A stretch of 64,000 nucleotides of DNA from positions 5,156 through 69,155 of the forward strand of contig CAIQIZ010000022.1 in NCBI GenBank assembly GCA_903872035.1. Direction: 5' to 3'. The position numbers and the translations under genes are program-made. Within the stretch, counting starts at the first letter, position 1. Every line of letters starts with the position of its first letter. The DNA comes from an uncultured bacterium. Its GTDB lineage: Bacteria > Patescibacteriota > Minisyncoccia > Phycocordibacterales > PALSA-1337. A model generated the notes under the pieces. That model saw only the letters and a list, made by a program, of their open reading frames with translations. It was not told where the DNA came from and ran no database searches. Positions 13,964 to 17,458 of the stretch are shown piece after piece.

Positions 13964-16900
13964 ATGAAAAAGAAACTCAAAGGAGGTGCCACCTCCAAAT
14001 ATAACCCAGCAACGATCGAGCCAAAATGGCAGAAGAAGTGGGAAAAGGAAAAGCTTTACGTGGCCAAGGAAAAGGCTGGTAAGAAGAAATTTTATGGCTT
14101 GATCGAATTTCCGTATCCATCTGGTGATGGTTTGCATGTTGGCCATATCCGCAGCAATACTGCCATGGATATCATATGCCGAAAGCGACGTCGTGAAGGG
14201 TTCGAAGTGCTATATCCCATAGGATGGGATGCTTTTGGTCTGCCAACAGAGAATTACGCTATCAAGACTGGTATTCAACCTTCAGTAGTCACCAAGAAGA
14301 ACACTGATACCTTCCGCAAACAACTGAAAGCTCTCGGCTTCTCATTCGATTGGTCAAGGGAAGTTAATACGACCGATCCAAAATACTATCGCTGGACGCA
14401 ATGGATATTCTTGCAGCTTTTGAAGAATGGTCTGGCATACAAGAAGAAGATGACGATCAATTGGTGTCCCAAAGATTTGATCGGCTTGGCCAACGAGGAA
14501 GTGGTGAATGGCCGCTGCGAGCGTTGTGGCACGCCGGTAGAGAAGCGTGAAAAGGAACAATGGATGCTGGCTATAACAAAATACGCAGAACGTCTCGACA
14601 GAGATCTTGATGATGTAGATTATCTACCAAAGATTAAGACCCAACAGAGGAATTGGATCGGCAAAAGCGAGGGAGCGGAGATCGATTTTAGATTGACGAT
14701 TAAGAATAGTAAGACGAGATTCGTGATTCTTCATGGCTTCGATGGGGGAGCCACGACGGATTTCCACCCATGGCTAAAAGAAGTGTTGGAGAAGCGTGGT
14801 CATGAAGTTGAACTTCCGGAATTGCCGAACGCCTATCATCCTAAGGAAGCCGAGCAAGTCGAATATGTTCTAAAGAATTGTAAATTGGATGAGAATACGG
14901 TTATTGTCGCTCATAGTTTAGGCGCGGTCGTGGCCATGAAAGCCTTGATGAAATTGAACAAGCCAATCTCTGGTTTGGTCTTGGTGGCCGCTGCCGTCGA
15001 TCCGAAATTCGACAAATTTTATGAGTCGCGTCCATTTGCCAAAGAATTCGACTGGAAATACGATTACGCTTTGCTTCAAAAGCTGACTGGTGGAAAGGTC
15101 GCAGTGCTTTCAGATCTCAAAGAAAAGCACAGAAGTCGTTATTTGAAATTCTTGGCTGAAAAGTTGAATGCACGTTTTGTTGAAACCAGTAGCGTAGAAG
15201 AGCATTTCTGCGCCAAAGAAGAGCCGGAAGTCCTCAAAGCCGTCACTCCATCTATCAAAGTCTTCACCACTCGCCCTGACACGCTCTTCGGGGCGACTTA
15301 TATGGTCTTGGCGCCAGAAAATCCTTGGGTCAAGATAGTTTTATCGCAGCTTGAGAACAAGACTGAAGTTGAAGCATATATCGCCAAAGCCTCGCATGAG
15401 ACAGAGATAGAACGCACTGATGCCACCAAAGAAAAGACGGGCGTCGAATTGAAGGGCGTGAAGGCGGTCAATCCCGCTAACAACGAAGAGATCCCGGTAT
15501 GGATCGCAGATTATGTTCTCTCTGACTACGGCACGGGAGCTATCATGGCTGTTCCGGCGCATGATGAGAGAGACTGGGAGTTTGCCAAGAAATTTGGGTT
15601 GCCGATCCGACATGTCGTTATACCGCAAAGGATTGGATTTCCTGGCGAGCTGGCTTTTCGTCCAAATGAACCGGTTGTCAATCGTAGGGTCATTCGTGCG
15701 GTAGTCAAACATTGGTCAGATAATTCCTACGCAGTTCTGACTTGGAAAGACAATGGCTGGAAGACGTTCATATCCGGTGGTATCGAAGAAGGAGAGGACC
15801 CAGTGACTGCTGCCAAAAGAGAGATATTCGAAGAGATCGGTTACAAAAATGCGGAGTTCGTCGGACCTATAGGTGGGCCGGTTCAAGCGAAGTTCTACGC
15901 GCCAAATAAGAAACAAAATCGTATCGATATCCAACAAGGATTGCTCTTCAAGCTGAAGAATGACGAGCGGGTGGACGTATCTCCTGACGAGCTCAAGATT
16001 CACGAGATGCAATGGTTACCGTGGGAATCTCTTGGTGAATTTATGAAGGGTACCATCATGGACTCATTCTTATTTGAGCGCCTCAATAGTGGTAATAATC
16101 AGTACTTTATCGGTAGTGGCATATTGATCGACTCTGGCCAATTCTCAGGAAGAGATTCCGAGTCGGCCATGAAAGAGATCACCGAATCGGTCGGCGGAAA
16201 ATGGGTCACCAAGTACAAGCTTCGCGATTGGGTATTTTCTCGTCAGCGGTATTGGGGCGAGCCTATTCCGGTCGTGCATTGTGACGCTTGTGAAGCGAAA
16301 GATCCTGACAATGGTGGCTGGGTTCCAATTCCGGAAAAGGACCTGCCGGTAAAGCTGCCGGTCGTGAAGAATTATAAACCGACACAGACTGGGGAATCTC
16401 CATTGGCTGCCATGACCAAATGGGTCAATGTCAAATGTCCAGTATGTAAGGGACCAGCCAAAAGAGAGACTGATACTATGCCGAACTGGGCTGGCTCGAG
16501 CTGGTACTACTTGCGCTATGTCGACCCAAAGAATGCGACACGATTTGCTGACTCAAAGAAATTGAAGTATTGGACACCTGTCGACTGGTATAACGGCGGT
16601 ATGGAACATACCACCTTACACCTCCTATATTCGCGTTTCTGGCACAAATTCTTGTTCGACCAGGGCGTGGTCCCGACGAGCGAGCCATATACAAAGAGGA
16701 CTTCCCACGGGCTCATCCTGGCGGAATTCGGGGTGAAGATGTCCAAGTCCAAAGGTAACGTTGTCAATCCAGATACCATCGTTAAAGCTGTCGGTGCCGA
16801 TGCGTTACGTGTATACGAGATGTTCATGGGACCTTTCGATCAACCGATCGCTTGGGATACGGACAATATCGCTGGATCACGCCGTTTCATTGAACGCGTT

Positions 16901-17458
16901 TGGAATATGCGCCAGCGAATTACTGGTGGAGCAGCCGAATCTTCGCCAGCTTCGGCGCAAACCGATCGAATCATCCATAAGACCATCAAGAAAGTCGGAG
17001 ATGATATCGAAGCTATGCGATTCAACACAGCCATAAGCTCGCTTATGATACTTGTAAATGAACTTGAGAAGCAGGGAGGAGGAAGGAGGGAGGAGGAAGT
17101 AGAAATTCCAGCCGCTATTTCACGCGAAAATTTTGAGATCCTTCTTAAGCTGCTCGCGCCATTCGCACCACATGTCACTGAAGAGCTTTGGGTCTCTCTA
17201 GGCAATAAAAAATCGATCCATTTGAGCGACTGGCCGGCTTATGATGCGAGCTTAGCCGCCGATGATGAAGTAAAAATAATCGTGCAAGTTAACGGCAAGG
17301 TCCGCGGCTCGTTCATGGCTAAGCAGGGAGCCCAAATGGAAGATTTGGAACGTCTGGCCAAGGGCTTGCCTGAAGCCAAGAAGTGGTTGGAAGGCAAGCA
17401 GATCGGCAAGGTGATAGTAGTGCCGAATCGTCTCGTCAACATCGTGTTGACAAATTAG
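13964..17458 (+). CDS. leuS: Leucyl-tRNA synthetase with two embedded extra domains (YdeN-like alpha/beta serine hydrolase; NUDIX hydrolase)
   Basis: HIGH motif 'LHVGHIRS' and KMSKS 'KMSKSKGN'. CP1 editing block '[18 protein letters not shown]...[26 protein letters not shown]'. Anticodon-binding and C-terminal regions conserved. Extra ~180 aa between '[13 protein letters not shown]' and 'TTRPDT' contain 'FVILHGFDG...[10 protein letters not shown]' (an alpha/beta hydrolase GxSxG). Extra ~130 aa after the editing-domain core contain a perfect NUDIX box '[23 protein letters not shown]'. Total 1164 aa against about 800-860 typical. Confidence 0.9.
   Translation: [1164 protein letters not shown]

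Follow-up and report, generated by a model that had tools for sequence, protein, structure and literature searches.

A leucyl-tRNA synthetase of an uncultured Patescibacteria bacterium with a serine hydrolase and a NUDIX hydrolase nested in its CP1 loops

The leuS open reading frame described here is encoded in a window of 64,000 nucleotides (the whole stretch of DNA that was analysed) from an uncultured Patescibacteria bacterium, and its features are collected in Table 1. The encoded leucyl-tRNA synthetase (LeuRS) scores 951.1 bits against TIGR00396 (leuS_bact), for which the curated equivalog cut-off is 548.4, and it aligns with T. thermophilus LeuRS 1H3N (E 1e-210, 705 bits) in four collinear segments that leave residues 244-430 (Tth 236-242) and 556-717 (Tth 364-379) of the query unmatched. 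The match to the LeuS editing domain PF13603 (194 bits, Pfam) is likewise split over two stretches. The protein has the same collinear catalytic, CP1 editing, anticodon-binding and C-terminal domains as canonical bacterial LeuRS (T. thermophilus 1H3N and the E. coli 4AQ7/3ZGZ series) and shares with it H.GH, KMSKS, the threonine-rich motif and the editing Asp; among 120 relatives H.GH, KMSKS, TTRPDT and AHDxRD are each kept in 119-120. On the basis of motif alignment D537 is assigned as the Asp of the editing site, the residue that holds the substrate by its alpha-amine, and to judge from these motifs the gene encodes a working LeuRS in which the aminoacylation site and the CP1 editing site are both intact. 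Unlike canonical bacterial LeuRS it contains about 350 more residues, which make up two complete enzyme domains in CP1 loops, and it is devoid of the leucine-specific domain of 1H3N (Tth 593-637 have no counterpart in the alignment). The excess can be put at roughly 300-350 aa because Patescibacteria LeuS without inserts span 780-900 aa. A sequence-only reading of the window had already described a leuS about 300 aa over canonical length with two discrete blocks in an otherwise collinear protein. Its length estimate agrees with the comparison to insert-free LeuS, its two blocks are recovered by the 1H3N alignment and Pfam with borders within a few codons of those in Table 1, and all the protein strings that it quoted are found in the translation.

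Table 1. Features of the leuS gene and its two nested domains (window positions; residues of the translated protein)
Feature	Position (nt)	Strand	Residues (aa)	Basis or remark
leuS ORF	13964..17458	+	1164 plus stop	LeuRS of bacterial type containing two nested domains
Catalytic (Rossmann) domain N-terminal half, ZN1 region, strand into CP1	13964..14689	+	1-242	1H3N alignment (aa 11-244 to Tth 2-236)
HVGH (class I HIGH motif)	14135-14146	+	58-61	H.GH conserved in 119/120 relatives
Site B insert, YdeN/RBBP9-type alpha/beta serine hydrolase	14690..15253	+	243-430	PF06821, AF2, structure search
His-Gly oxyanion motif of site B hydrolase			257-258	
Nucleophile in AHSLG	14909-14923	+	Ser318	
Asp of triad	within 15107-15121	+	Asp384	
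His of triad	within 15197-15211	+	His414	
CP1 editing-domain core	15254..15631	+	431-556	PF13603 match aa 429-555, 1H3N alignment
TTRPDT threonine-rich editing motif	15266-15283	+	435-440	Conserved in 120/120
AHDERD	15557-15574	+	532-537	Both Asp conserved in 120/120 relatives
Site C insert, NUDIX domain	15632..16111	+	557-716	PF00293, AF2, box, clade signature
Canonical Nudix box GX5EX7REUXEEXGU	15776-15844	+	605-627	Exact match; catalytic E620, E623, E624
Aromatic pair			F644-Y645	+17/+18 past Nudix box; FY is the clade consensus
Clade signature K649-x-x-N652-R653	15908-15922	+		
CP1 end, catalytic domain second half, anticodon-binding and C-terminal domains	16112..17455	+		1H3N alignment, PF08264
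Two CxxC knuckles	16280-16291, 16436-16447	+		Insertion sites E and F in relatives; unoccupied in window LeuRS
KMSKS	16736-16750	+	925-929	Conserved in 119/120 relatives

The site B insert stops four residues ahead of the threonine-rich editing motif. Ser_hydrolase PF06821 matches it in the whole protein with 33.8 bits (E 3.9e-8; range 33.8-37.9 bits; Pfam cut-off 22), and the AF2 model of the isolated insert (pLDDT 93.7) resembles YdeN 1UXO and the Phe-bound RBBP9 7OEX with a TM of 0.79-0.80, every other alpha/beta hydrolase reaching 0.65 at most. Like B. subtilis YdeN (1UXO) and human RBBP9 (2QS9, 7OEX), which belong to PF06821, the insert has a compact alpha/beta-hydrolase fold of about 190 aa with a Ser-Asp-His triad and a His-Gly oxyanion motif, but the identity to these proteins is only 21-23%, and both are free-standing whereas the window hydrolase is embedded in another protein. 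The triad is conserved among relatives (Ser in 66 of 68, Asp in 59 and His in 66). For RBBP9, acyl-enzyme adducts have been described with Leu/Ile, Met, Phe, Tyr and Trp, a free alpha-amine being required (PMC8866121). At the level of a HMMER sequence alignment its alpha-amine anchor Glu108 corresponds to Tyr111 (beside Glu112) in the insert, and Tyr99 and Leu103 of its hydrophobic cage correspond to Ala and Lys, so that an RBBP9-like specificity of the insert is tentative. Stand-alone relatives of the hydrolase show no linkage to leuS in any of four contexts.

The site C insert is located in a variable loop late in CP1 and is recognised by PF00293 in the whole protein with 46 bits (E 6.6e-12; range 46-49.8 bits; Pfam cut-off 21.1). 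The AF2 model of the isolated domain (pLDDT 93.9) shows the alpha/beta/alpha NUDIX fold, with 523 NUDIX matches in the PDB at E<=1e-3, the best with a TM of 0.70/0.80, and the nearest folds are the Ap4A hydrolase 3I7U and RppH, only slightly ahead of other NUDIX families. The subfamily assignment is soft; the best profile match is 2AZW, an uncharacterised NUDIX protein of E. faecalis. The top structural and sequence neighbours are NUDIX Ap4A hydrolases and RppH (Aquifex 3I7U, lupin 1F3Y, C. elegans 1KT9 and E. coli RppH 4S2X), which at 15-22% identity share with the insert the fold, the canonical Nudix box and an aromatic residue at the X-loop position, where Ap(n)A hydrolases have a Tyr approximately 17 residues after the box (PMC5389931). 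Unlike these enzymes, the embedded NUDIX clade has a signature of its own (the R in 'VER', K-x-x-N-R and E...W) and an N-terminal lead-in. Both domain assignments proposed from sequence alone are thereby borne out, the textbook NUDIX box by an exact match and the PF00293 score, and the YdeN/RBBP9-like hydrolase by PF06821, the triad and the AF2 fold with its TM values; the confident models of the two isolated inserts indicate autonomous domains.

The window LeuRS represents one of the forms taken by a modular system that is found in Patescibacteria (Paceibacterota/Parcubacteria). The 120 LeuS relatives (Patescibacteria/Paceibacterota), which were picked by similarity to the insert-bearing query and are biased towards inserts, comprise at least 33 domain architectures; the inserts are lineage-wide and combinatorial. 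At least six LeuRS loops are occupied, the same domain type being found at different loops, and the occupants are NUDIX (one to three copies), the serine hydrolase, HAD, a marginal Ham1-like domain, a DUF559 nuclease and two unknown domains. All of the sites lie around the entrance to the active site, in the connective-polypeptide region, and no domain is inserted in the anticodon-binding or C-terminal parts of the relatives examined. NUDIX occurs at sites A, B and C, as well as near site E in three representatives, and the serine hydrolase at sites B and E; site A precedes the CP1 linker and site E is in the CxxC zinc module, both outside CP1. The Nudix box is strictly canonical in 92 of 107 site-C inserts, and 103 of the 120 proteins have at least one canonical box. 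Site C is empty in 13 proteins, nine of which have a NUDIX at site A, and three proteins with an unrelated domain at site C also have a canonical NUDIX at site A; four relatives are without any NUDIX. At sites A and B relatives can have a Gln-variant NUDIX in which the first Glu is replaced by Gln and the Arg of the RE pair is lost while the EE metal ligands are kept. The site-C NUDIX evolves fast, its mean pairwise identity being 33% compared to 68% for the LeuRS core. The inserts are dispensable on evolutionary timescales, and Paceibacterota include a LeuS (L001) that has no insert and shows 65% core identity. The window encodes one other synthetase, AlaRS, which contains no nested enzyme, and nested enzymes are therefore not a general feature of aaRSs.

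The NUDIX clade is small, with 336 matches at E<=1e-3 among 1.84 billion (1.84e9) representatives. LeuS accounts for 112 of the best 149 of these matches and for every embedded copy among them (112 of 112), no other host protein being found among these best 149 of 336. In two lineages stand-alone members are direct or close neighbours of leuS, 46-60 nt upstream of the gene at three loci (L083, L085 and L086) and 2.4 kb upstream of an insert-free leuS within a same-strand cluster at a fourth (L081), and a further one is located 100 nt downstream of argS (L088). The stand-alone variant copies are 57-68% identical to embedded copies at all sites. Neither a clade NUDIX nor the hydrolase is a neighbour at 80 insert-free leuS loci. 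Both the exclusivity for LeuS and the adjacency to leuS could reflect local recombination and descent and not function.

The reading that best accounts for the architecture as observed, to which we give about an even chance, is that of accessory hydrolases tied to LeuRS chemistry. Two autonomous hydrolase domains are inserted in CP1 surface loops of a working LeuRS, and small-molecule hydrolases (NUDIX, serine hydrolase, HAD and possibly Ham1-like) have repeatedly lodged in the connective-polypeptide loops around the active-site entrance; it is proposed that they act in cis as clean-up enzymes. Both domains are likely to be catalytically active, and a functional coupling of the inserts to LeuRS is somewhat favoured; the specific chemistry of either domain is tentative. 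The architecture, the folds, the conserved catalytic residues, the recurrence across the lineage, the confinement of the NUDIX clade to LeuS and the position of its free-standing members near leuS are shown, and action on LeuRS-derived substrates, as well as the identity of these substrates, is inferred. For the NUDIX domain the proposed targets are adenylylated by-products such as Ap(n)A, or related compounds of the nucleoside-diphosphate-X kind. Synthetases are known to make Ap(n)N (PMC7705103), and a NUDIX chemistry directed at Ap4A or aa-AMP gains some support from the host exclusivity, the leuS neighbourhood and the nearest folds, Ap4A hydrolase and RppH. The serine hydrolase may accept the aminoacyl moiety of hydrophobic aminoacyl species that are activated or esterified and have their alpha-amine free, and then hydrolyse it, with released non-cognate aa-AMP, aminoacyl esters and possibly aa-tRNA as candidate substrates, a suggestion drawn from the family precedent of RBBP9. 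An analogy for this domain is offered by AlaX, YbaK/ProXp and DTD, free-standing trans-editing and aa-tRNA deacylase factors which are auxiliary hydrolases that add to synthetase proofreading; however, their folds are unrelated to the inserts and they act in trans, whereas the window domains are nested in LeuRS, and we know of no alpha/beta-hydrolase or NUDIX editing factor. Extra proofreading had also been argued from the position of the hydrolases in the editing domain. The placement in CP1 holds, but the argument loses force, since in relatives the same domains are also found outside CP1, at sites A and E, and closeness to the editing pocket is therefore not required.

A rival explanation of fairly low probability is that the inserts are hitch-hikers, independent housekeeping ('house-cleaning') enzymes that in tiny streamlined genomes came to reside in permissive loops of LeuRS, an essential protein with constitutive expression, with the multi-site pattern and the restriction to LeuS arising by descent and intragenic or local recombination and not from function. 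LeuRS may be merely a permissive scaffold, as the DUF559 nuclease and two unknown domains fill the same loops as the HAD and marginal Ham1-like domains, and the frequent gain and loss with insert-free close relatives, the fast evolution of the NUDIX, the stand-alone hydrolase relatives unlinked to leuS and the ability of both inserts to fold without LeuRS in AF2 would all fit this explanation. It sits less easily with the finding that all 112 embedded clade NUDIX domains among the best 149 representatives are in LeuS, that free-standing members adjoin leuS or argS, that site A tends to be occupied where site C is empty, and that the sites are confined to the connective-polypeptide region while the anticodon-binding and C-terminal parts, like the AlaRS of the same window, are undecorated.

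It is improbable that the inserts provide on-target protection against aminoacyl-adenylate-mimic toxins by destroying leucyl-adenylate analogues that inhibit LeuRS, the serine hydrolase cutting the aminoacyl-nucleotide bond and the NUDIX or HAD domain the nucleotide part. Such inhibitors exist (agrocin 84/TM84), and detoxification of analogous compounds is known from MccF-type serine peptidases and from GNAT domains. RBBP9-family chemistry on hydrophobic aminoacyl bonds with a free alpha-amine would suit this role, the patchy, fast-turnover distribution is like that of defence or immunity functions, and a Peptidase_S66 gene (LdcA/MccF family) is located two genes upstream of leuS in the window, although it is not kept beside leuS at other loci and may encode no more than a common LD-carboxypeptidase. 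That a synthetase can carry an additional enzymatic domain has a precedent in the NCBIfam family NF040702 (Isoleucine-tRNA ligase, N-acetyltransferase domain-containing), likewise class Ia and likened here by its family listing, which differs in both the synthetase and the enzyme class (a GNAT transferase, not a hydrolase) and to which the window LeuRS does not belong (84.9 bits; cut-off 1999). The toxin explanation is wholly inferential, no toxin or biosynthetic locus was found, and NUDIX targets pyrophosphate linkages, which are missing from acyl-phosphoramidate or sulfamoyl mimics.

A role as regulatory or sensor modules has a similarly low probability; here the NUDIX, in particular the Gln-variant form of sites A and B, would bind Ap4A, ADP-ribose or an alarmone and tune LeuRS with no need for hydrolysis, and the serine hydrolase would be a ligand-binding or protein-interaction module. 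A catalytically inactive, Ap4A-binding NUDIX protein is known in CF Im25 (PMC7705103), and the variant NUDIX has lost the first Glu and the RE-pair Arg and yet is more conserved than the canonical form (57-68% free versus embedded identity), but it still has the EE metal ligands, and the fully canonical box of the window NUDIX together with the conserved hydrolase triad points to catalysis. The remaining alternative is that the sequence is chimeric through assembly, or that the mature protein forms only after removal of an intein- or intron-like element. It has nothing in its favour beyond the unusual length and is effectively refuted: chimeric assembly is excluded because at least 18 independent contigs in assemblies from ENA, JGI and NCBI encode an identical protein in the same gene neighbourhood, GC is uniform along the ORF and no meaningful repeats are found at the insert borders, while Pfam finds no Hint/intein family, neither downstream insert junction (one being AVTPS|IKVF) has a His-Asn followed by Cys/Ser/Thr, and the inserts are in-frame, folded enzymes with conserved catalytic residues that recur in more than 100 homologues. 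That the two-hydrolase LeuRS is real is practically certain.

A full-text literature search found no published description of a LeuRS with a nested NUDIX or serine hydrolase. The architecture had been thought undescribed, and this holds for publications but not for public databases, which already carry automatic labels such as the JGI 'leucyl-tRNA synthetase/ADP-ribose pyrophosphatase YjhB (NUDIX family)/predicted esterase'; nor is it a one-off, since the insertion of small hydrolases into different LeuRS loops is a lineage-wide habit in Patescibacteria which is apparently undescribed. The accessory-hydrolase reading extends, as a speculative and rather doubtful step, to LeuRS as the docking platform for a dedicated modular hydrolase toolkit in Patescibacteria that serves as a layer of quality control, by-product clearance or self-protection. 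If true, the toolkit would consist of a LeuRS-specific NUDIX clade with canonical and Gln-variant members, a YdeN/RBBP9-type aminoacyl hydrolase, and HAD and Ham1-like nucleotide hydrolases, which would shift among loops, at least six in number, and alternate between an embedded state and a free-standing one adjacent to leuS. The synthetase would then have a third, alpha/beta-hydrolase-based editing activity together with an Ap(n)A- or aa-AMP-directed pyrophosphatase in cis, and these may represent a previously unrecognised layer of synthetase quality control.

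The leuS gene occupies positions 13964..17458 on the + strand and encodes a protein of 1164 aa, exactly where the sequence-only reading had placed it, and every peptide quoted in that reading is present in the translation. The protein scores 951 bits with the NCBIfam model of bacterial leucine-tRNA ligase (TIGR00396, cut-off 548), and by its sequence it is a bacterial LeuRS whose synthetase machinery is complete. That the enzyme is otherwise collinear with LeuS is borne out by a PDB search, in which four segments align to T. thermophilus LeuRS (1H3N) and two blocks stay unmatched, aa 244-430 (Tth 236-242) and aa 556-717 (Tth 364-379). 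The proposed identity of the inserts likewise holds in HMM searches, with Ser_hydrolase (PF06821) reaching 33.8 bits in the whole protein and 37.9 bits in the block alone (cut-off 22), and NUDIX (PF00293) reaching 46 and 49.8 bits, respectively (cut-off 21.1); the Pfam LeuS editing domain (PF13603, 194 bits) is split over two stretches. Unlike T. thermophilus LeuRS, the window enzyme is missing the leucine-specific domain, and at window positions 16700-16750 (aa ~915-930) only 'EFGV' lies between ...HGLILA and KMSKS, where T. thermophilus has ~45 residues more. GC content is even along the gene, the insert borders carry only 12-21-mer repeats at chance level, and independent ENA, JGI and NCBI assemblies contain at least 18 contigs that encode the identical 1164-aa product, with the same neighbours. 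This rules out the assembly artefact that had been considered. Taken with the Pfam results, which include no Hint/intein family, it effectively excludes an intein, an intron or a chimera as readings of leuS.

Motifs of the window LeuRS, its two inserts, and the loops that hold inserts in its relatives
Feature	Position	Description
HVGH	aa 58-61	catalytic motif
Site A	after ~aa 216-221, ahead of CP1 linker	one or two NUDIX domains in relatives
Insert B, serine hydrolase	aa 243-430	in turn between strand ...EGAEIDF and strand running into TTRPDT
Insert B, catalytic parts	aa 257-258; Ser318; Asp384; His414	His-Gly oxyanion motif (aa 257-258); nucleophile Ser318 in AHSLG
Site B	aa 243-430	serine hydrolase; NUDIX; hydrolase + DUF559 nuclease; marginal Ham1-like; 133-aa domain without Pfam match
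TTRPDT	aa 435-440	threonine-rich editing motif
AHDERD	aa 532-537	motif with editing Asp
Insert C, NUDIX	aa 557-716	variable loop between helix after AHDxRD...KFGLPI and strand ...DSGQFSG
Site C	aa 557-716	NUDIX; or 133-aa domain without Pfam match, also seen at B
Site D	after aa 726	one unnamed domain
Site E	after first CxxC knuckle	serine hydrolase; unnamed domains
Site F	after second CxxC knuckle	HAD, DxD motif intact
KMSKS	aa 925-929	catalytic motif

Elsewhere in the 64-kb window there is no second leuS and no further copy of the clade NUDIX or the hydrolase. A gap of 800 nt upstream of leuS (13160-13963) has a lower GC content (0.37-0.43) and short ORFs only; Rfam gives nothing at threshold across the whole window, so that the gene has neither a T-box nor any other known leader in front of it. 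Two genes upstream of leuS, with ychF in between, lies a Peptidase_S66 gene (11003-11986, +; PF02016 121 bits, PF17676 99.7 bits) of the family that includes LdcA (LD-carboxypeptidase) and MccF (microcin-C immunity). MccF-type enzymes cleave aminoacyl-nucleotide mimics. Other leuS loci do not conserve the gene as a neighbour, and its vicinity is therefore probably coincidence. The AlaRS of the window (26587-28503, +) is short (638 aa), consists of tRNA-synt_2c and tRNA_SAD without the C-terminal C-Ala region, and contains no nested enzyme domain.

A structure prediction had been suggested to see whether the two inserts fold as autonomous domains. Each models confidently when folded alone with its family alignment (insert B: pLDDT 93.7, pTM 0.91; insert C: pLDDT 93.9, pTM 0.87), and they are therefore autonomous and not LeuRS loops that have expanded. 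Insert B, which ends four residues ahead of TTRPDT, is assigned to PF06821, and its model matches YdeN (1UXO) and Phe-bound RBBP9 (7OEX) with TM 0.79-0.80, compared with TM <=0.65 for every other alpha/beta hydrolase. The catalytic positions are kept in 59-66 of 68 homologous inserts, and the predicted fold and triad place insert B firmly in the YdeN/RBBP9 family. The hydrolase, seen at sites B and E and in one tandem case, evolves at an intermediate rate (mean pairwise identity 51% versus 68% for the LeuRS core). Its best functional precedent is human RBBP9, which requires a free alpha-amine and, when its catalytic Ser is changed to diaminopropionate, captures Leu/Ile, Met, Phe, Tyr or Trp as single residues (PMC8866121). 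Chemistry of this kind is what the discharge of aminoacyl esters or anhydrides calls for. LeuRS also has to tell Leu, Ile and Met apart. However, Tyr99, Leu103 and Glu108 of the RBBP9 pocket have no conserved counterparts in the sequence alignment with insert B, and leuS is absent from all four genomic contexts of its free-standing relatives (38-46% identity, 194-218 aa), both of which would argue against a direct transfer of RBBP9 function. At L095 (111-530) and L097 (378-815), loci of such relatives on two separate contigs, a divergently transcribed neighbour has a CdiA_C (PF18451) toxin-type domain.

Insert C has an exact Nudix box at aa 605-627 and can be assigned to PF00293. The top structural match of its model is the Aquifex Ap4A hydrolase 3I7U (TM 0.70/0.80), and other near folds are the uncharacterised E. 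faecalis NUDIX 2AZW, RppH, the C. elegans and lupin Ap4A hydrolases and mycobacterial diadenosine polyphosphatases. The margin of these neighbours over other NUDIX families is small, and the profile search gives an ambiguous substrate. An exhaustive phmmer search of 1.84 billion representatives with the window NUDIX block returned only 336 proteins at E<=1e-3. Among the best 149 of these 336, 112 are LeuS or LeuS fragments (median 1.28 bits per residue against the LeuS core HMM), about 25 are genuine stand-alone proteins of 158-199 aa, and no host protein other than LeuS is found. The clade is marked outside the Nudix box by an Arg in 'VER', K-x-x-N-R, E...W and an aromatic pair 17-18 residues past the box. 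It comes in two flavours, both with stand-alone versions: the canonical one sits at site C and as the first copy at site A, and the variant, in which the first Glu is replaced by Gln and the Arg of the RE pair is lost, sits at site B, as the second copy at A and as some single copies at A and C. Free variant NUDIX proteins share 57-68% identity with the embedded variant copies of every site; canonical site-C domains are less conserved, with 33% identity among themselves. Where site C is empty, 9 of 13 LeuS have a NUDIX at site A, and all three LeuS with an unrelated domain at C also have a canonical NUDIX at A. Tandem duplication of inserted modules occurs, as is evident from a 379-aa protein of three clade NUDIX domains without any LeuS part (P0127) and a 1169-aa LeuS with two serine-hydrolase domains (P0211).

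Several free-standing clade NUDIX genes are found near leuS. P0271 precedes leuS by 60 nt on the same strand (locus L083), and P0272 precedes it by 46 nt (L085, L086); the two cases probably count as one lineage, since L085 and L086 are syntenic with L083. A third, P0152, shares a same-strand cluster (L081) with an insert-free leuS and lies 2.4 kb upstream of it; the cluster also includes an HD/YfbR-like nucleotidase, a TatD nuclease, a MetRS-like gene and a generic NUDIX. This last gene (L081 10476-10913, 145 aa) is not of the clade (13.8 bits) and stops 4 nt short of the leuS start codon, a further NUDIX-leuS juxtaposition of another NUDIX type. P0281 follows argS at a distance of 100 nt (L088), and two more sit at contig ends with uninformative contexts. 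A Rosetta-stone test for clade NUDIX or hydrolase genes beside leuS, run on the 80 insert-free loci of a GTDB scan, was negative, the sole candidate (L002) being a generic NUDIX without the clade signature. A 295-aa protein of LeuS editing domain plus NUDIX (P0276), considered as a stand-alone CP1-NUDIX factor, is one piece of a frameshifted leuS.

The 120 best homologues of the window protein are all from Patescibacteria; the taxonomic range of insert-bearing leuS rests on source names, which include Paceibacterota, Parcubacteria, Pacebacteria, Taylorbacteria and Patescibacteria group. PF00293 is present in nearly all of them and PF06821 or HAD in many as well, but insert frequencies are biased upward because the sample was picked by similarity to an insert-bearing query. 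The family alignment places inserts at no fewer than six LeuRS loops, in at least 33 distinct architectures, of which that of the window, with the hydrolase at B and a NUDIX at C, ranks second in frequency (25/120). Every site falls around the active-site entrance, in the connective-polypeptide region that comprises CP1 and the zinc modules; in the 120 homologues the anticodon-binding and C-terminal domains vary in linker length only. Throughout the relatives the catalytic and editing motifs of LeuRS are invariant, which implies that the inserts are additions to the editing site and not substitutes for it. LeuS without inserts, 780-900 aa long, are likewise found in Paceibacterota and Parcubacteria, and one of them (L001) has 65% core identity, on a par with insert-bearing relatives, so that inserts are gained and lost among close relatives. 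To the question whether the window gene is a one-off, the answer is that inserts are lineage-wide and combinatorial. A GTDB scan with the insert-less core found nearly only insert-free LeuS, chiefly of Bacillota and Saccharibacteria; since contiguous matches head its ranking, it supplies controls and not the range of insert-bearing genes.

Some inserts are of other kinds. Two homologous LeuS, P0070 and P0117, continue in frame from the site-B hydrolase into a DUF559 (Vsr-like) nuclease domain (112 bits). The low-complexity 'PSPALP..GEG' / 'GEGLGGV' repeats on its flanks resemble translated palindromic repeat DNA; it may be a mobile element that landed in frame and a clue to the route of domains into the loops. 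The ~133-aa domain ('...GFWNEY...W.W...WY') is present at site C in P0046, P0099 and P0102 and at site B of the LeuS in L085 (914-3763), and has moved between loops like NUDIX and the hydrolase. At site B of P0067 and P0084 an insert of 212-217 aa starts with 'VLIGTRNEAKI'; that of P0067 matches Ham1p_like (ITPase) marginally (23.3 bits, threshold 22.5) and, if real, would add a fourth family of nucleotide house-cleaning enzymes to those nested in LeuRS.

The window protein can thus be described as an intact LeuRS with two predicted autonomous domains of conserved catalytic residues. The same hydrolase families recur in LeuRS loops, the NUDIX clade has LeuS as its only host among the best 149 of 336 matches, and free NUDIX genes lie near leuS. 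The balance tips slightly towards functional coupling of the inserted domains to LeuRS, with both acting in cis on molecules made at or near its active sites. It is tentatively proposed that the NUDIX would clear adenylylated by-products of the Ap(n)A type, as such compounds are made by aaRSs (PMC7705103) and are substrates of the nearest structural neighbours of the NUDIX. The serine hydrolase could possibly supplement CP1 by stripping hydrophobic aminoacyl groups off released non-cognate aa-AMP, aminoacyl esters and perhaps aa-tRNA, a proposal of similarly modest likelihood. The main rival holds that the domains are house-cleaning enzymes that work independently and hitch-hike neutrally in a permissive scaffold. 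It would account for the variety of the inserted domains, their fast turnover and the hydrolase relatives unlinked to leuS; it appears rather unlikely, as it sits poorly with LeuS being the only host of the NUDIX clade (best 149 of 336), with the leuS neighbourhood of free NUDIX genes and with the undecorated AlaRS of the same window. On-target detoxification of leucyl-adenylate-mimic toxins and nucleotide-sensing regulation by the inserts are each improbable.

Aminoacyl-tRNA synthetases are among the most conserved enzymes, and to our knowledge those of bacteria seldom gain new catalytic domains. Eukaryotic synthetases with appended domains are well known, and an NCBIfam IleRS family with a GNAT domain is another synthetase that carries an extra domain. 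The supposition that the architecture is undescribed has so far stood: the full-text literature searched, with most subscription journals outside its coverage, describes neither hydrolase domains nested in LeuRS nor the combinatorial pattern, and databases hold automatic annotations only. That complete, predicted-active hydrolases sit inside the editing domain of an essential synthetase, and that the same few families reappear at differing loops throughout a lineage, would surprise synthetase specialists. Should the domains have intermediates or by-products of LeuRS as their substrates, they would represent a novel form of quality control in translation or of Ap(n)A/aa-AMP housekeeping and provide a physiological context for the orphan YdeN/RBBP9 family. 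Otherwise, the lineage is a natural, well-replicated domain-insertion experiment, which maps the class I synthetase loops that tolerate inserts of 130-370 residues, of use in protein engineering, and illustrates accessory-enzyme packaging in ultra-small CPR genomes.
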